Shown here: piece after piece, positions 27,283-41,669 of the stretch
Layout: each line of letters begins with the position of its first letter
How positions within the stretch are numbered: position 1 is the first letter of the stretch
IMG/VR virus record: IMGVR_UViG_3300025119_000002
From: a virus
Direction: 5' to 3' (one strand)
DNA length: 41,669 nt
The notes under the pieces: model-generated
Database searches by the model: none
Seen by the model: the letters and a program-made list of their open reading frames with translations, nothing else
What the model was told of the DNA's origin: nothing
Program-made: the position numbers and the translations under genes

Positions 27283-27618
27283 TTAGTCCGTGTGCAGCCT
27301 GTCTGGTAGCCTTCGCAAGATCAACTGATACCACTCTGCGCAATCGCCCCGTCGTACAATCAGACGCGGCGTGTTGATGGCCTGCGCCAGGAGCCGCAGA
27401 TGGTTGTAGGTGTCGCCGCTGGCCTTCTTAGGGTAGCGCCCGGCCACCGGCATGGCCGATCCACGCGAATGGCTTGGGTCGTCTGGCCACCCCGCTCGCC
27501 GGTTGATTGCCTGCTCGACCAGCCAAGCTGGGTCACTGGTGTAGCTCACGGAGTAGCCAGCCGTTCGGGTGTCCTGGCAGCGCCGGAGGTAAGCGATGGT
27601 GCGGGCAGTTGGGGTCAT
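27283..27618 (-). CDS. Hypothetical protein
   Basis: The ATG at 27618 overlaps the upstream stop (ATGA). The N-terminal part of the 172-aa track ORF is off-frame overlap. Confidence 0.6.
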   Translation of the reverse strand: MTPTARTIAYLRRCQDTRTAGYSVSYTSDPAWLVEQAINRRAGWPDDPSHSRGSAMPVAGRYPKKASGDTYNHLRLLAQAINTPRLIVRRGDCAEWYQLILRRLPDRLHTD

Positions 27619-27953
27619 GCGGCACCCCCGATCGGATCGGTCTGCGAAAGGTGAAACACGGTGGTAGTCCACGGCCGCGACGCCGTCCGCTCCACTTCCT
27701 GCCCGGTGGCTTCGTCGCGCTCCTTGCGCGTGGTTTTGATAATAGTGGCTACCTTGACGCCGTGCTCGCCCTTGCGCACCTGGCGCCCGAGTGCGCGCCA
27801 TGCGTCGTAAGTGAATACATTTACTCGTGGGTTGATTTCAGCCTCGGGAATCCCCTTGGCTATGAATCCCGTGAAAATCGCGGGATAGTTCCCTACACTC
27901 CGGCCGTTTACCGCATGGCTCAGAGCTTCCTGCTGAATTGCTTGGCTACTCAT
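27615..27953 (-). CDS. ArdC N-terminal-like ssDNA-binding domain protein (no protease domain)
   Basis: NVFTYDAWRALGRQVRKGEHGVKV resembles the ArdC-N/DUF1738 core motif. It is the first gene after the promoter at 28014. Confidence 0.55.
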   Translation of the reverse strand: MSSQAIQQEALSHAVNGRSVGNYPAIFTGFIAKGIPEAEINPRVNVFTYDAWRALGRQVRKGEHGVKVATIIKTTRKERDEATGQEVERTASRPWTTTVFHLSQTDPIGGAA

Positions 27954-33659: not shown

Positions 33660-33922
33660 GATACTTTGTCCTCATTCTCTGGCGCGGGGCCAGGCTCAAC
33701 CGCCGCAGGGCGGCTCAGCTTGGGTCCGGTCGTTAGTCTCTCCGCCGTCTCCGCCAACACTCGCTCGCATATCTGCACAATCAACCCGGCACCCCAAGCC
33801 GCAGCATCATCCGGCGATTTGTTGTTCGGATCAGCGTCCTCTTCAATCCCGGAGGGAAAATTATAGGCAAGGTGCATTATCTCTTGGACCGCTTCTTGCA
33901 ACCGACGTTCACGGGTCGTCAT
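33656..33922 (-). CDS. Hypothetical protein
   Basis: 88-aa ORF with 4-nt overlaps. Confidence 0.5.
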   Translation of the reverse strand: MTTRERRLQEAVQEIMHLAYNFPSGIEEDADPNNKSPDDAAAWGAGLIVQICERVLAETAERLTTGPKLSRPAAVEPGPAPENEDKVS

Positions 33923-34131
33923 GATTCCTGCCGTTCAGTCGCCAGCTTCACCATTCGCTCTCCCTCCGGAGTGAGAGACCATGCCTTTTCCTTCATTTGA
34001 AGCTCCCACTGTAGCCACCCAACCCCAACAAGCACCTGGTAGGAAATGCCTGGCCCAGACGGTCGCTGCCCCCGGCTAAAGCGCACCAGGGCGCGTAGGA
34101 GCGCAGCTTCGTGCTGTTCGATAGCGTTCAT
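33919..34131 (-). CDS. Hypothetical protein (possible winged-helix)
   Basis: 70-aa ORF with 4-nt overlaps. Confidence 0.5.
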   Translation of the reverse strand: MNAIEQHEAALLRALVRFSRGQRPSGPGISYQVLVGVGWLQWELQMKEKAWSLTPEGERMVKLATERQES

Positions 34132-34376
34132 TTACTCCCATCGGCTTTCTGGAGCAGGCCAGCGATATAGGCGGCGCGAAGGCCACGAGCCAATATACAA
34201 TATATCGCCTCACTCGCCTTCTTATCTTTGCCCAAAGCGTCCCGAGCTTGCATCAGCGTGATTTCGCCGCACATCCAGGCAACGGCCAGTTCTACACGCT
34301 GTTCATCTACCGGCAAATGCCTCCTGGCAGGTGTTTCACGGGCCATCTCCAGCAGTGTCTTCGCTTTGTTTTCCAT
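34128..34376 (-). CDS. First leftward gene: small putative DNA-binding regulator
   Basis: I chose the ATG at 34376 with a GGAGG 4 nt upstream. It lies about 35 nt downstream of the leftward promoter. The helical GEITLMQARDALG segment looks HTH-like. Confidence 0.55.
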   Translation of the reverse strand: MENKAKTLLEMARETPARRHLPVDEQRVELAVAWMCGEITLMQARDALGKDKKASEAIYCILARGLRAAYIAGLLQKADGSK

Positions 34377-34416
34377 CGGCCCTCCAATATCCGCGTCCGT
34401 GGGCGGCACAGCAGAA

Positions 34417-34446
34417 AGTATACCCGCACGGGAAGTAGAATGTCAA
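34417..34446 (-). promoter_or_regulatory. Leftward switch promoter: TTGACA-18-TATACT
   Basis: Minus strand reads gtcTTGACAttctacttcccgtgcgggTATACT, with -35 at 34446-34441 and -10 at 34422-34417. Confidence 0.65.
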
Positions 34447-34460
34447 GACTTTTTTTTCGC

Positions 34461-34490
34461 TTGCATTTTTCCTGCCGCTTCGGGTACACT
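34461..34490 (+). promoter_or_regulatory. Rightward switch promoter: TTGCAT-18-TACACT
   Basis: -35 at 34461-34466 and -10 at 34485-34490. A T8 run separates it from the divergent -35. The ATG at 34499 lies only 8 nt past the -10. Confidence 0.5.
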
Positions 34491-34498
34491 TATTGGCG

Positions 34499-34693
34499 AT
34501 GGAGTTGATCTCGACCAAGGATGCCGCCTTGCGCATGGACCTGTCCCCCCGCCGCATCCGGCAGTTTATCGAAGATGGCCGGTTGCCGGCACAAGCCATC
34601 GGGGGCCGCTTTGCGATCCGCCCAGGGGACCTTCTCCGGCGTCGGATAGCCAAGCGAAAGAACGGTCGTCCGCGTAAGTCTCTGAAAACATAG
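34499..34693 (+). CDS. Excisionase/MerR-family HTH protein (Cro-like position)
   Basis: MELISTKDAALRMDLSPRRIRQFIEDGRLPAQAIGGRFAIRPGDL matches the HTH_17/Xis-type pattern. It is the first rightward gene. Confidence 0.7.
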   Translation: MELISTKDAALRMDLSPRRIRQFIEDGRLPAQAIGGRFAIRPGDLLRRRIAKRKNGRPRKSLKT

Positions 34694-34708
34694 AGAGAAA
34701 GATTTCTC

Positions 34709-34738
34709 TTGACAATTCTATTCCCATTGGGGTATAGT
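34709..34738 (+). promoter_or_regulatory. Sigma70-type promoter: TTGACA-18-TATAGT
   Basis: tttctcTTGACAattctattcccattggggTATAGT, followed by GGAGG and the uORF ATG. Confidence 0.7.
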
Positions 34739-34755
34739 TGTGTCTGGAGGCTGCG

Positions 34756-34809
34756 ATGATGAAGCGACCGACCATCAAGGCGCTCCGCGAGTTTGAGGAG
34801 TATCCATGA
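34756..34809 (+). CDS. 17-codon uORF, a truncated duplicate of the 5' end of 35405..35566
   Basis: MMKRPTIKALREFEEYP. GGAGG lies 5 nt upstream. Its TGA overlaps the ATG of the next gene (ATGA). Confidence 0.35.
   Translation: MMKRPTIKALREFEEYP
34759..34801 (+). repeat. 43-nt direct repeat, copy 1 (39/43 identical to 35405-35447)
   Basis: atgaagcgaccgaccatcaaggcgctccgcgagtttgaggagt versus atgaagcgaccgaccactaaggcactccgcgagttcgaggagt. Confidence 0.85.
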
Positions 34810-35393
34810 CCAACGCTGCCCTGTTGAGCTTGCTAAAGCGAAAAAAGGCCTGTCCTGAGGCCGTCGCGTGGGTTGGTACGCGAGACCTGGTCACAGCTTG
34901 GCGCGAGTGCGAACGAGCTGATTGGATGCTATGGTTTTGTGGAATTATGGCAGGCACGAAGAACTGGCCGACATGGCAACAAGTGGTGCTTGTAATGTGC
35001 ACCTGTGCTCGGCAGGCATTGCGGTTTGTGCCGGCTGGAGAAAACCGTCCACTTGCTGCAATCGAAGCCGCTGAAGTGTGGGCAAAAATGCCTACTACCG
35101 GGGCCGCCGCCAGGGCCGCCGGGGCCGCCGGGGCCGCCGAGGCCGCCGCCGGGGCCGCCTGGGCCGCCGCCGGGGCCGGCAGGGCCGCCTGGGCCGCCGC
35201 CGGGGCCGCCGGGGCCGCCGGGGCCGCCAGGACCGCCAGGGCCGGCTGGGCCGCCTGGGCCGCCGAGGCCGCCGCCAGGGCCGCCTGGGCCGACGGCGTG
35301 GCCGACTGGGCCGCTGGCGAGGCCGCCGGACACAAGATTCTGGCTGATTTGGTGCGAAAATTGATCCCTCGAATTACAGACTGCAAGAAATAA
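34806..35393 (+). CDS. Cys/Trp-containing helical N-domain followed by an Ala/Gly/Trp repeat protein
   Basis: The N-domain (KKACPEAVAWV...CERADWMLWFC...CARQALRFVP...AIEAAEVWAK) continues in frame into AAGAAGAAEAAAGAAWAAAGAG... and a normal C-terminus (ILADLVRKLIPRITDCKK). Confidence 0.65.
   Translation: MTNAALLSLLKRKKACPEAVAWVGTRDLVTAWRECERADWMLWFCGIMAGTKNWPTWQQVVLVMCTCARQALRFVPAGENRPLAAIEAAEVWAKMPTTGAAARAAGAAGAAEAAAGAAWAAAGAGRAAWAAAGAAGAAGAARTARAGWAAWAAEAAARAAWADGVADWAAGEAAGHKILADLVRKLIPRITDCKK
35098..35330 (+). repeat. 9-nt periodic GC-rich tract (GGG/GCC/GCC-type units)
   Basis: Read directly: ggggccgccgccagggccgccggggccgccggggccgccgaggccgcc... Five of the six frames are ORFs in the supplied track. 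Confidence 0.85.
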
Positions 35394-35404
35394 TCGGTGC
35401 GGAC

Positions 35405-35447
35405 ATGAAGCGACCGACCACTAAGGCACTCCGCGAGTTCGAGGAGT
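35405..35447 (+). repeat. 43-nt direct repeat, copy 2
   Basis: See copy 1. This copy is the intact 5' end of the 53-aa gene. Confidence 0.85.
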
Positions 35448-35566
35448 GGCTCGAAAAGCGAGCCTGGAAAGCGGATACCGTAATTGAGCGTCAAGAAGGC
35501 CGCATGATCTTGCGGGAGTTCCGTGACAGGTTCGGATCGCGGCACAAGGAATGGGGGAAAACATGA
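35405..35566 (+). CDS. 53-aa hypothetical protein (below the track cutoff)
   Basis: MKRPTTKALREFEEWLEKRAWKADTVIERQEGRMILREFRDRFGSRHKEWGKT. Its stop overlaps the next ATG (ATGA). Confidence 0.5.
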   Translation: MKRPTTKALREFEEWLEKRAWKADTVIERQEGRMILREFRDRFGSRHKEWGKT

Positions 35567-35874
35567 CGACTATGCGTCCTGGCGGCTTCGCCCCGCATGA
35601 GCACTACTGCCGGATTTGCGGGACGACCTACGAGTGTCGCAAGACCGACTGCAATCTGCCGAACATGGTGAGGTCCTGCCGTGAATGCGACGAACGCCGC
35701 TGCCGTATCTGTCAGAAGATCGGCCCGGATAAACACCATGAAATCCCGAGTGTGCCCTATGACGACGGATGGGCGCACCCGGCATGTGTTGCGGAGGAAC
35801 GATGGGAGCGAGACCGCGAAGGCGATCCTCCCGAGCGAGAGCCGCACCAGCATCGCTTCCCGAGTGGAGTCTAG
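35563..35874 (+). CDS. Cys-rich zinc-binding hypothetical protein
   Basis: CRICG...C...C...CRECD..RCRIC pattern. ATG at 35563 is coupled to the upstream stop. Confidence 0.55.
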   Translation: MTTMRPGGFAPHEHYCRICGTTYECRKTDCNLPNMVRSCRECDERRCRICQKIGPDKHHEIPSVPYDDGWAHPACVAEERWERDREGDPPEREPHQHRFPSGV

Positions 35875-35903
35875 TGATTTTGAAAAAAAGGAGAACGAAA
35901 AAG

Positions 35904-36194
35904 ATGAAGAAGAACACTTACGTTATCGTCCGCACCTATAGTGCGGGTGTATTTGCCGGTATTCTGAAGTCCCGCAAAGGACAAGAAGTCATCCTGCTCA
36001 ATGCCCGCCGACTTTGGTATTGGTCCGGAGCGGCGACTCTATCGGAATTGAGCGTCTCCGGGGTAAAGCATCCAGACAAATGCAAATTCCCCGTGTCTGT
36101 ACCGAATGTGACGCTATTACAAGCCATCGAGATTCTGCCATGTTCGGCAAGCGCCCGTAAGAGTATTGAGGAGGTTCCCATATGGAGAGTGTGA
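35904..36194 (+). CDS. Hypothetical protein (conserved phage family, function unknown)
   Basis: AAGGAG SD and ATG at 35904. The sequence is well-behaved (VIVRTYSAGVFAGIL...ARRLWYWSGA). Confidence 0.65.
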   Translation: MKKNTYVIVRTYSAGVFAGILKSRKGQEVILLNARRLWYWSGAATLSELSVSGVKHPDKCKFPVSVPNVTLLQAIEILPCSASARKSIEEVPIWRV

Positions 36195-36418
36195 TCTGCT
36201 CCGGCTACGGCTCCGGCTACGGCGACGGCTCCGGCTCCGGCTACGGCTCCAGCTACGGCGACGGCGACGGCTCCGGCGACGGCTACGGCCACGGCGACGG
36301 CTCCGGCGACGGCTCCGGCTACGGCCACGGCTCCGGCTCCGGCCACGGCGACGGAGACGGCGACGGCTCCGGCTACGGCTACGGCTACGGCGACGGCGAC
36401 GGCTACGGGCAATCCTGA
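36182..36418 (+). CDS. Gly/Tyr/Asp/Ser low-complexity protein (78 aa)
   Basis: GAGGAGG lies 7 nt upstream of the ATG at 36182. Its TGA overlaps the ATG of the exonuclease gene (TGATG). Confidence 0.5.
   Translation: MESVICSGYGSGYGDGSGSGYGSSYGDGDGSGDGYGHGDGSGDGSGYGHGSGSGHGDGDGDGSGYGYGYGDGDGYGQS
36195..36412 (+). repeat. 6-nt periodic tract (GGC-TAC / GGC-TCC / GGC-GAC units)
   Basis: Read directly: ggctacggctccggctacggcgacggctccggc... Two forward frames and one reverse frame are ORFs in the track. Confidence 0.85.
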
Positions 36419-37065
36419 TGCCAACCCCTAAGCGAGGCTATTTCCTCGCTGACGGCGCTCGCGTGCCGGGAGTGACTACGATCCTGGGGCGATTCAAGGA
36501 TATGGGCGGGTTGCTCCATTGGGCGTGGGAAGAAGGGTGCGCCGGGCGGGACTACCGCGAGACGCGAGATGCGGCGGCTGATGCAGGTACTCTTGCTCAC
36601 GCAATGGTCGAGGCGAAAATTCGCGGTAAGCGCTTCGTCGTCCCCGAGGATACGCCCCCCGAGATTAGAAACAAAGCCTGTCAAGCCTACTCTATGTATA
36701 ATGAGTGGGCCACGCAAACAAGACTTCAACCGCTGGTAACCGAAGTGCAGTTCGTCTCGGAACAACATCGTTTTGGCGGGACTTTGGACGTGGTTCTCGT
36801 AGGCGGCAGGCGGCTACTAGGCGATTGGAAAACTTCCGGCGCGATTTACACCGAGCACCTGCTACAGCTTGCGGCCTACGACATCCTGTGGAAAGAAAAC
36901 CGGCCTGCTGAGCCGATCGAGGGCTATCAGATTGTGCGATTCAGCAAGGAGGAGGCCGATTTCGAGCAGCGATATTTCATGCAACTTGATGTTGCCGAGG
37001 AAATGTTCCTGCTCCTGCGCCGGGCATACGACCTGGATAAGAAAGTCCGAAAGAGAGTGAGGTAA
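36418..37065 (+). CDS. PD-(D/E)XK (RecB/Cas4-like) exonuclease
   Basis: GTLAHAMVE, GGTLDVVLV, LGDWKTSG and LLQLAAY motifs in the canonical order. Confidence 0.8.
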   Translation: MPTPKRGYFLADGARVPGVTTILGRFKDMGGLLHWAWEEGCAGRDYRETRDAAADAGTLAHAMVEAKIRGKRFVVPEDTPPEIRNKACQAYSMYNEWATQTRLQPLVTEVQFVSEQHRFGGTLDVVLVGGRRLLGDWKTSGAIYTEHLLQLAAYDILWKENRPAEPIEGYQIVRFSKEEADFEQRYFMQLDVAEEMFLLLRRAYDLDKKVRKRVR

Positions 37066-37068
37066 CAA

Positions 37069-37905
37069 GTGGAAAACGAAACAAGAGAATTAGCGGTGAT
37101 GCCAGCGGAGGTGGCGACGCCCGGAGGTTCCTTCAGCGGCGCCTTATCGCTGACAAGAACGCCGGAAGCGATACTGGCGGATGCTTCCCGGGCGGCCAAG
37201 GCATTGATGGCCGTCGTGCGTCGTAACGGTTGGGAAATCAAGATCGGCAAGGGCAAGCATCTGAAGGCCGAGGGCTGGCAAATGGTTGGCGGCTTCTACG
37301 GAGTTACTGCGAGAACGCGAACAGTGAGACCGATCAACTTCGGGGAGGTTCACGGCTTCGAGGCTACTGTCGATGCCGTCAGCAATGGTAACGTCATCGG
37401 AAGCGCCACGGCCATTTGCCTGAATGATGAGGAGAACTGGGGCGTGCGTCCGAAGTATGAATGGCAGGGGCCGGATGACGACCGCAAGCGAGTGAAAGTC
37501 GGCGAGGAGAAAGTGCCGATGAACCAGCTTTGTTCAATGGCGCAGACTCGTGCCGGGGCCAAGGCCCTCCGGGCCGTCTTCTCTTGGGTTGTCGCGCTTG
37601 CCGGGTATCAACCCACCCCAGCCGAGGAAATGACTGGCTTCGATCAATCGGCTGCGCAATCTCCTCCTCAGCAGGGCGGCCCGGCCAGGATCATCAGCGA
37701 CCCCCAACGCAAACGTATGTACGCGATCGGCAAAAAGGCTGGCTGGACCGATGACGAGATGAAGAAGTTGCTGGCGCGATACGGCTTCGCTCACAGCACG
37801 GAAGTGACGATCGACAAGTACGAGGAAATCTGCACGAAGCTGGAGCAGGGAACGGAGCGAGAGCCGGGAGAGGATAGACCCTCGCCCATTTCCGGGCTGC
37901 CATAA
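37069..37905 (+). CDS. Putative single-strand annealing protein (recombinase)
   Basis: It sits immediately after the exonuclease. SMAQTRAGAKALRAV-type motif, and an acidic/Pro-rich C-terminus. The family is not assigned. Confidence 0.5.
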   Translation: MENETRELAVMPAEVATPGGSFSGALSLTRTPEAILADASRAAKALMAVVRRNGWEIKIGKGKHLKAEGWQMVGGFYGVTARTRTVRPINFGEVHGFEATVDAVSNGNVIGSATAICLNDEENWGVRPKYEWQGPDDDRKRVKVGEEKVPMNQLCSMAQTRAGAKALRAVFSWVVALAGYQPTPAEEMTGFDQSAAQSPPQQGGPARIISDPQRKRMYAIGKKAGWTDDEMKKLLARYGFAHSTEVTIDKYEEICTKLEQGTEREPGEDRPSPISGLP

Positions 37906-37915
37906 CTGCGGAGGG

Positions 37916-38161
37916 TTGAACTTGTTCCGCGAAAAGAAGTCTCTGACGCACCGCAAGCAGACCCGTAAGCAGATTATCGCTCTGTTGCGGGCGCTGCCGA
38001 ATGATGTAGCGAGAGCTGAGGTGCTGGCGGCAGCGTGTACCGCCCTGCGGATCATGCAGCGGACAAGCCGAATGTTCGACGCGCTCCTCGAAGGCGAACG
38101 AAGGCGGCGTAGGAATTTCGCGTCGAGAGAACAGCAGATCATCTTGACGAGGAAGACATGA
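37916..38161 (+). CDS. Hypothetical protein
   Basis: 81-aa ORF with a TTG start in the track. Confidence 0.4.
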   Translation: MNLFREKKSLTHRKQTRKQIIALLRALPNDVARAEVLAAACTALRIMQRTSRMFDALLEGERRRRRNFASREQQIILTRKT

Positions 38162-38358
38162 CTATCGCGGATCGTGAGAAGAAAATCCGAGCAGCTATTG
38201 AATGGGTTCGGTATACAGAAAAGCGCTGGCATGATTCTTCAGCGGACACGGAAGAGATGGTGTGGAAAGGTCTTTTCATAGACGCGGAGAACAAGTTCGG
38301 CTTGCAGTGGCGAAACGTGGAGGTGGTGCTGAATGCCAAAACGACTACCAAGGATTGA
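38158..38358 (+). CDS. Hypothetical protein
   Basis: 66-aa ORF with an ATGA overlap with the upstream gene. Confidence 0.5.
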   Translation: MTIADREKKIRAAIEWVRYTEKRWHDSSADTEEMVWKGLFIDAENKFGLQWRNVEVVLNAKTTTKD

Positions 38359-38692
38359 CCCGAAGGATAGCCTGCTGATCGAGGCTGACCTGGAGAAGCA
38401 AGTCTTCGCCTTCCTCCGCGAGAAGCAGTGGCGAATTGTTCGCCATCGGCCAACGGGAACACGTGGGCACCATCGGTACCTGGGAGAAAAGAACGCTGCC
38501 GATGCTTTGATTATCCGGCCGACTAGCGTTGGCTATCTTCAAGGCTTCTTCCTGGAACTCAAGAGACCCGGTCAAAGACCGACACTTGGGCAACTGAAGT
38601 GGATGGCGGATCGAGAGCGCGAAGGTTACAGGACAACCTGGGTCGATAACCTCAAACAGTTCCGAATCTGGTACTGGAGGCAGCTCTACTGA
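38333..38692 (+). CDS. VRR-NUC domain nuclease
   Basis: EADLEKQVFAFLREKQW...AADALII...FFLELKRPGQRPTLGQLKW...GY matches the VRR-NUC D...E-x-K layout. Confidence 0.7.
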   Translation: MPKRLPRIDPKDSLLIEADLEKQVFAFLREKQWRIVRHRPTGTRGHHRYLGEKNAADALIIRPTSVGYLQGFFLELKRPGQRPTLGQLKWMADREREGYRTTWVDNLKQFRIWYWRQLY

Positions 38693-41568: not shown

Positions 41569-41669
41569 GTGATTCGCCTTACTGGAATCCCGACTGGACG
41601 GACCCGCGCCGCGCACCCGGAGGCGACTGGCGGCTACAGCGGCGACTCAATGAGGGCTTCCGGGCGCTC
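41565..41669 (+). CDS. 5' part of the junction-spanning 65-aa ORF (continues at base 100 after removing the overlap)
   Basis: The ATG at 41565 overlaps the previous stop (ATGA). The frame runs to the contig end and resumes in frame 1 at base 1. Confidence 0.5.
   Translation, partial: MSDSPYWNPDWTDPRRAPGGDWRLQRRLNEGFRAL
41571..41669. repeat. Terminal overlap, copy 2 (identical to 1-99)
   Basis: Same comparison as copy 1. Confidence 0.9.

Follow-up and report, generated by a model that had tools for sequence, protein, structure and literature searches.

We analysed the virus record IMGVR_UViG_3300025119_000002 of IMG/VR, a stretch of 41,669 nucleotides (nt) that is called the window here, and examined the segment 34752-35447 within it. 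The window is a complete tailed-phage genome, with genes including those for the portal, the major head protein, the large terminase and the head-closure protein. It is circularly closed, positions 1-99 and 41571-41669 being identical at 100% (99 nt), so that the unit length is 41,570 bp. No DNA match to the window was found among the deposited phages of the INPHARED collection. The segment is located at the divergent control region. A near-consensus early rightward promoter of the sigma-70 type is predicted at 34709-34738 (+) (TTGACA, 18-nt spacer, TATAGT; 11 of 12 positions match). Downstream lies the resident Shine-Dalgarno (SD) sequence GGAGG (34746-34750, +), 5 nt upstream of the ATG at 34756, with a strength of -9.3 kcal/mol; SD strengths are given throughout as the duplex energy with the canonical 16S tail. 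Two full-length genes follow on the same strand: a gene of 195 amino acids (aa) at 34806-35393, which we regard as accessory, and, behind an 11-nt spacer (TCGGTGCGGAC, 35394-35404), an intact 53-aa gene at 35405-35566, which we call g53.

The first 43 nt of g53 occur twice. The upstream copy (34759-34801, +) and the downstream copy that opens the intact gene (35405-35447) are identical at 39 of 43 positions, the differences being at g53 positions 17, 18, 24 and 36. Extended upstream to include TGCG, the repeat reaches 50 nt with 86% identity (34752-34801 and 35398-35447). Such repeat pairs have a chance expectation of ~3e-10 in the window. After the two copies, the next match to the 43-mer is only 24/43, and the best match across 200 shuffles was 28/43; the terminal overlap aside, this is the sole substantial dispersed direct repeat of the genome. 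Together with the resident ATG, the upstream copy forms a remnant open reading frame (ORF) of 17 codons (34756-34809, +; MMKRPTIKALREFEEYP and a TGA stop), which consists of that ATG, g53 codons 1-14 with the first base of codon 15, and the junction bases. Its TGA (34807-34809) overlaps the ATG at 34806 of the 195-aa ORF (34806..35393), giving the sequence ATGA at 34806-34809. An earlier interpretation made from the sequence alone (the sequence-only reading) had described the duplication, the promoter, the GGAGG ahead of the duplicate, the short ORF and the stop-start overlap, and all of these are present as described.

The same arrangement was found in 13 contigs assembled independently from different JGI and ENA samples. 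A chimeric join at the repeat is conceivable in a metagenomic assembly with repeat arrays close by. Given the identical structure in contigs from different samples and assemblers, a repeat of 43 nt that is shorter than the k=141 of the ENA contigs, and two copies that can be told apart, we give an assembly artefact practically no credence.

Relatives of the window, whose contigs are denoted by L-numbers, fell into four lineages: the window type (L003-L015 and L017), the L001 type (L001/L002, L018-L020, L025, L028-L031 and L033-L037), L016/L021, and L038/L039. All lineages were found together in the same samples. For example, window-type L012 occurs with L021 in sample 3300025174, window-type L004 with L001-type L029 in sample ERZ27254818, and window-type L003 with L039 in sample ERZ27254793. 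The promoter at 34709-34738 is common to the window, L001 and L016, and the same promoter, SD and ATGAT precede three different arrangements. In the L001 type, ATGAT runs on as ATGATAGCCGATAAAGCC... and opens a 242-aa ORF with similarity to Methyltransf_25 and mad2, followed by a 34-codon ORF and then by g53. In L016/L021, ATGATAGCCGATAAAGCC, which encodes MIADKA, the first six methyltransferase codons, is joined in frame to the ATG with which a 195-aa gene homologue begins. L016 represents a more distant phage, with a switch region 77% identical to that of the window. In the window, the third arrangement, the resident start leads into the g53 remnant. Neither L001 nor L016 has a counterpart of the 17-codon ORF. 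The proposal that a newcomer had taken over a resident start is supported by these relatives, which place the same promoter, SD and ATG before other first genes, and by the upstream copy itself, which matches the g53 of L001 at 42 of 43 positions.

L038 and L039 have a 195-aa-type gene, an 11-nt spacer in which the last base alone is altered (TCGGTGCGGAT, ending in GAT for the GAC of the window), and then g53. Behind g53 lie an ERF/YqaJ recombination pair and then the N-terminal part of the 195-aa gene in a second copy. Both contigs (L038, 2841 bp; L039, 2828 bp) start and finish within a 195-aa-type gene, and L039 has an exact 80-nt end overlap, implying a circle of 2748 bp. This overlap could mean that g53-g103-ERF-YqaJ has a gene copy on either side, or else point to a tandem unit or a mini-circle.

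Comparison with L001 and L016 located the block boundaries. Identity between the window and L001 is 97.8% up to 34760 (the BLAST block pairs L001 3824-4179 with window 34405-34760), the sequences are unrelated over 34761-35403, and identity is 94.6% from 35404, one base before the g53 ATG. At the first junction (J1, 34760-34761, +), the homology with L001 and L016, which extends from the leader through ATGAT, stops and the g53 remnant begins. J1 could be derived from an L001-like genome by deletion of what lies between ATGAT^ and CCAT^, namely the methyltransferase-like gene and the 34-codon ORF, AT serving as microhomology. The second junction (J2, 34802-34805, +) comprises the bases ATCC; its sequence is GAGGAGT, then AT, then CCATGACC, where CC opens the block shared with L016. 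That block (L016 1016-1383, window 34804-35168) is 96.2% identical and extends from 2 nt before the 195-aa ATG into a repeat array within the gene. To its left, the switch and promoter region is 77% identical; to its right, there is no homology until 37762. Since a block of 96.2% identity stands amid such diverged flanks, the 195-aa gene has recently passed between phages that are otherwise diverged. The unit shared with L016 consists of the N-terminal domain and part of the repeats, and the C-termini differ; the exchanged block is thus not the whole gene that the sequence-only reading placed between the two gene starts. With respect to both L016 and L001, the locus thus has high-identity blocks beside low-identity or non-homologous flanks, as is typical of phage mosaic junctions.

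A further stump lies at a mosaic junction of L016 itself. Behind the 195-aa homologue, L016 has a 51-aa ORF (L016:1454-1609, corresponding to window 37762-37905) in which four new codons are fused in frame to the final 47 codons of the 278-aa gene of the window. Everything from g53 to 37762 is lacking in L016.

The two copies of the g53 start belong to different alleles. The intact g53 of the window differs from that of L001 at positions 17, 18, 24, 30, 36, 48, 96 and 120, and six of the seven altered codons are synonymous, which argues for g53 being a real gene. As an ORFan, it is restricted to the present phage group: no homologues beyond its own cluster were found by a word-index search or by a full HMMER search of 1.8 billion representatives, and a search of GTDB genomes returned nothing. 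The g53 copies linked to the 195-aa gene (window, L017, L038 and L039) all carry 24A, 30C, 36C, 48C and 96C, unlike the L001 type, to which the upstream copy belongs. Because the two repeat copies match different circulating alleles, they argue against a duplication in situ and for a join of two genomes. Direct repeats around a single gene might otherwise be taken for the insertion of a mobile element, the 43-50 nt repeat being its target-site duplication, or for an in-situ tandem duplication that later diverged. A repeat of that length that is 9-14% diverged does not resemble the target-site duplication of a transposable element. Between the copies there is no transposase or homing endonuclease gene and no terminal inverted repeat, the region's only inverted repeat is elsewhere, and scans with Pfam, PHROG, PADLOC and NCBIfam were negative for such functions. 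Copies that are 9% diverged and that each match a different circulating allele would also be unexpected from one event, and we regard both of these origins as highly improbable.

Collectively, these results suggest that 34752-35447 is probably a recombination scar between related temperate phages that share samples. The order and type of events that we infer are as follows. One parent would have carried the conserved early promoter, SD and ATG, closely followed by a g53 of the L001-type allele. In the other, the 195-aa Imm5-like gene would have stood directly upstream of a g53 of another allele. Nucleotide 43 of the first parent's g53 would have been connected to a point ~4 nt before the 195-aa ATG of the second by a non-homologous join, with microhomology slight or absent, most simply in a single out-of-register crossover. 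The product would have the order promoter, 43-nt g53 stump, 195-aa gene and intact g53. In the early rightward operon, the 195-aa gene would thereby have become the first gene of full length, in a slot where sister phages have a methyltransferase-like gene. The stump would be read from the operon's resident start codon, and its two Glu codons (GAGGAG) would also serve the newcomer as a strong ribosome-binding site. The recombination-scar reading is well supported, and it is strengthened because the same gene was captured again, in L016, behind the stump of another gene. The sequence-only reading had raised the question of whether the 195-aa gene travels with similar junctions elsewhere; the L016 homologue does stand behind a stump, but that stump (MIADKA) comes from a different gene.

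Several points weigh against this scheme. An empty site, in which the promoter is directly followed by an intact g53, was not found in IMG/VR, JGI metagenome contigs, GTDB genomes or an exact-protein index; an exact-pattern scan of the JGI metagenome contigs for it gave 0 matches, and scans with the promoter and leader returned L001-type and L016-type loci only. The first parent is therefore hypothetical. Likewise, no donor context was found in which the 195-aa gene has ...ATCC upstream. There are four lineages only, from few related sample series, which limits what they tell about the order of events. Finally, the leader SD lies ~1-6 nt from the predicted 5' end of the transcript, which makes the efficiency with which the stump ORF is read uncertain. 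Of the original idea of a recombination footprint, the part that stands is a newcomer on the resident promoter, ribosome-binding site and start codon, whereas insertion into an empty site is unsupported.

Very short recombination patches occur at the same place. Over 8 kb, L017 and the window are identical save for two repeat arrays and five substitutions at the 5' end of g53 (positions -1, 12, 15, 17 and 18), which lie within 19 nt (L017:5557-5575, window 35404-35422). Because the same allele occurs in L038 and L039, we interpret this cluster as a very short import. For the same reason, the idea that these were new mutations selected to break the repeat homology was dismissed, and no source for templated mutation was found within the genome. 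Relaxed, short-homology recombination has been described for phages that encode annealases of their own (De Paepe et al. 2014, PMC3945230), and the patch agrees with it. In the window, a PD-(D/E)XK exonuclease gene (36418-37065) adjoins a 278-aa gene (37069-37905, +), at a position occupied in L038 by ERF plus YqaJ. The 278-aa gene has no Pfam match and sits where the L038 lineage has its ERF annealase; its product may be a candidate novel single-strand annealing protein.

These recombination genes bear on another route, a Campbell-type insertion. Here a small circular or ends-in linear intermediate, consisting of the 195-aa gene and a 5' fragment of g53, would have entered the resident g53 by one short-homology crossover catalysed by the phage's own exonuclease and annealase. 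The duplication would be its direct product and the cassette could be excised again. Integration by a single crossover leaves exactly one copy of the homology segment at each side of the insert, as is seen here, and the phage has an exonuclease beside a likely annealase. In addition, 5 of the 8 differences between the g53 of the window and that of L001 lie inside the duplicated 43 nt (Fisher p=0.03), L039 looks circular and begins and ends in a 195-aa-type gene, and mini-circles formed between short repeats are documented for the promoter plus stem-loop units (PeSLs) of T4-type phages (PMC2839356). Against this, an earlier illegitimate event would still be required to form the circle, and the linked g53 allele also differs from L001 outside the duplicated segment (positions 48 and 96), which fits the allele of a whole-gene donor. 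The copies are perfectly identical over 16 nt at most, less than the minimal pairing segment of 23-27 nt quoted for Red-beta (PMC3945230), and the exact-pattern scan of JGI metagenome contigs detected neither an empty site nor an excision product. We consider this route unlikely. Cassette insertion into g53 specifically, as originally proposed, leaves a product that is indistinguishable from that of an unequal crossover between two genomes.

If the repeats were still active, the 43-50 nt copies would turn the 195-aa gene into a reversible cassette: the phage's exonuclease and annealase would release a circle of ~646 bp, which could insert into a co-infecting phage that carries the 5' end of g53. 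For accessory genes in the opening slot of the early operon, the start of g53 would then be a portable attachment homology. We regard this extension as quite improbable.

Under the two-parent scheme, the 195-aa gene would be transcribed from the promoter at 34709. A scan of 33800-36600 revealed no other plus-strand promoter-like site and no plus-strand terminator-like site. As for translation, in L001 the leader SD and ATG open the methyltransferase-like ORF of 242 aa. In L016, where the 195-aa homologue has no SD before its internal ATG (-0.1), the leader ATG is the sole plausible start and would yield a MIADKA fusion protein. Judging by these two relatives, the leader ATG is suggested to be used in the window as well, to translate the stump ORF. 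Within the stump, g53 codons 13-14 provide GAGGAG (34795-34800, +), a predicted SD located 5 nt before the 195-aa ATG. At -8.8 kcal/mol it is nearly as strong as the leader SD (-9.3), and scores of -8 or below occur in ~5% of all ATG contexts of the genome. No stable structure masks GAGGAG, the fold of 34740-34860 being no better than shuffles (z=+0.9), and the RNA element had no Rfam match. Since this SD is strong and accessible, direct initiation of the 195-aa gene should in principle be sufficient. The gene is probably translated by direct initiation reinforced by ribosomes that terminate at the ATGA overlap, and coupling through this overlap may add to direct initiation. Termination-reinitiation, the route named in the sequence-only reading, is thus not required, although it could contribute. 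The weak SD of the intact g53 (-3.2 in the window, -3.5 in L001) suggests that g53 may depend on upstream translation.

The strong SD and start of the 17-codon ORF and its ATGA overlap raise the question of whether the upstream copy was retained for function, as a regulatory leader peptide or a translational coupler needed by the 195-aa gene. ATGA coupling is common in this genome, with such overlaps at about 8 of 22 adjacent gene pairs. The family of the 195-aa gene often begins ATGAC..., so that any upstream frame has a 1/3 chance of stopping there, and other family members start behind unrelated sequences. The ORF is invariant in the 13 contigs, but these are nearly identical genomes and their invariance is uninformative. 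It is also lacking in L001 and L016. Together with the gene's own SD, the fold score and the Rfam result, this makes a functional leader a rather remote prospect compared with a stump left by recombination.

The 195-aa protein has a helical N-terminal domain of ~100 aa, variable Ala/Gly/Trp repeats and a short C-terminal helix. The repeats are encoded by an in-frame tandem array of 9/12-nt units (35098-35338, +), within which the block shared with L016 ends. The array is length-polymorphic among near-identical genomes (P0003-P0008; L017), with products of 146 to 195 aa that are always in frame. More than 200 homologues were found in environmental phages and bacteria; they share a ~95-aa helical domain with conserved Cys, Trp and Arg positions, variable Ala-rich repeats and a short C-terminal helix. 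When 53 aligned homologues were compared with Pfam, 17 matched Imm5_like (PF21805) and 11 matched DUF6931 (PF22011). The window protein and its N-terminal 100 aa matched 0 Pfam families even at E<=1. The protein is therefore, from its sequence, a relative of members of these two families, both of which its own family borders, and not itself a scored member of either. An AF2 model had pLDDT >90 for residues 1-100 and low confidence in the repeats. The protein had no fold match in the PDB, a sequence profile search of the PDB gave only noise, and the only match in BFVD was an uncharacterised phage protein. PHROGs, PADLOC and NCBIfam gave no match, and a search with the N-terminal domain returned nothing from GTDB genomes or IMG/VR.

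The neighbours of the gene are an HTH_17 regulator, g53, a 107-aa ORF, a DUF6948 gene and the exonuclease gene, and no toxin domain was found among them. A counter-defence or immunity role for the 195-aa protein is a guess at present, for which the alternation of its slot with a methyltransferase-like gene makes it a reasonable candidate. In a 42,965-bp NCBI contig (L022:4001-5703; GCA_964544405.1), a 195-aa homologue belongs to a run of small early genes, and an Apyc1-like (anti-Pycsar) gene of the metallo-beta-lactamase fold follows two genes downstream, with an ArdC-N gene nearby.

Other features of the control region were also recorded. A minus-strand promoter is predicted at 34446-34417 and would drive the leftward genes. 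Between the divergent promoters lies the HTH_17 gene (34493-34693, +), which has a Pfam match and whose coding strand is supported by protein-level conservation in L016. Public gene calls place two minus-strand ORFs (66 and 69 aa) in 34336-34775 and overlook this gene. The same promoter, including its spacer, occurs in three copies, at 34709-34738 (+), 34446-34417 (-) and about 28021-27986 (-), with the sequence TCTTGACA(A)TTCTAyyCCCnTTGnGGTATAGT. The spacer is partly palindromic (CTATnCC...GGnATAG) and operator-like in appearance. The third copy lies upstream of an ArdC-N-like 112-aa gene (27615-27953). Minus-strand ORFs at 34775..35545 and 34929..35333 were dismissed as by-products of the GC-rich repeat. 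Further downstream, between the DUF6948 gene and the exonuclease gene, lies a putative coding low-complexity repeat ORF (36182-36418, +) of the GYGDGS type with 12/18-nt units. It is 30 nt shorter in L017 (indel 36261-36290) and nearly absent in L001, which also lacks the DUF6948 gene. At 38014-38457 the window differs from L003/L013 by ~110 mismatches in 440 nt, the genomes being otherwise identical over 7 kb, and this marks another mosaic block boundary.

The locus shares traits with several known systems. Translational coupling through ATGA stop-start overlaps is known in bacterial and phage operons, and here too a 4-nt overlap (34806-34809) links an ORF with a strong SD to a downstream gene. 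Unlike in such pairs, the downstream gene has a strong and accessible SD of its own, so that dependence on the upstream ORF is not implied, and this ORF is the stump of a gene rather than a functional one. Morons are extra genes in lambdoid phages, and classical ones bring their own promoter and terminator. The 195-aa gene resembles them in being present where close relatives lack it, its place in L001-type phages being taken by the methyltransferase-like gene and the 34-codon ORF, and in its guessed host-interaction or counter-defence function. It differs in having no promoter of its own, relying on the resident early promoter and start region, and in having no terminator behind it.

The PeSLs of T4-type phages, each a promoter plus a stem-loop, are mobile regulatory cassettes, with many per genome (Arbiol et al. 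2010, PMC2839356). As with PeSLs, short direct repeats surround a non-essential gene in a plastic early region and could mediate gain, loss or mini-circles. In contrast to PeSLs, the flanking repeat here is the coding 5' end of g53 and has exactly two copies, the downstream one without a promoter or terminator match, and the three-copy promoter of the window does not flank the 195-aa gene on both sides. Imm5 proteins are putative immunity proteins of polymorphic toxin systems (Zhang et al. 2012, PMC3482391). The 195-aa protein is like Imm5_like and DUF6931 proteins in the matches of its homologues and in being all-helical. Unlike them, it has no Pfam hit, a variable Ala/Gly/Trp repeat array outside any confident model and a location in a phage early operon, with neither an adjacent cognate toxin gene nor a polyimmunity locus.

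The closest comparison is with the mosaic junctions of tailed phages, which are attributed to illegitimate or relaxed homologous recombination followed by selection (Hendrix model; De Paepe et al. 2014, PMC3945230). In both cases near-identical blocks lie beside diverged or unrelated ones, junctions fall at gene boundaries, patches are short and the phage has its own recombination genes. Unlike usual mosaic junctions, this one carries an explicit scar, a 43-nt stump of the neighbouring gene upstream and an intact, different allele downstream, and another gene's stump precedes a second capture of this accessory gene. The segment 34752-35447 is thus a mosaic junction of a known kind that is unusually legible, with no new mechanism or element type. 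It provides a clean natural example of how an early operon receives an accessory gene in its most promoter-proximal slot, with both parental alleles readable at the junction. The second capture of the same gene, behind the stump of a different gene, would be independent of the first, and the codons of a stump can turn into the newcomer's ribosome-binding site.

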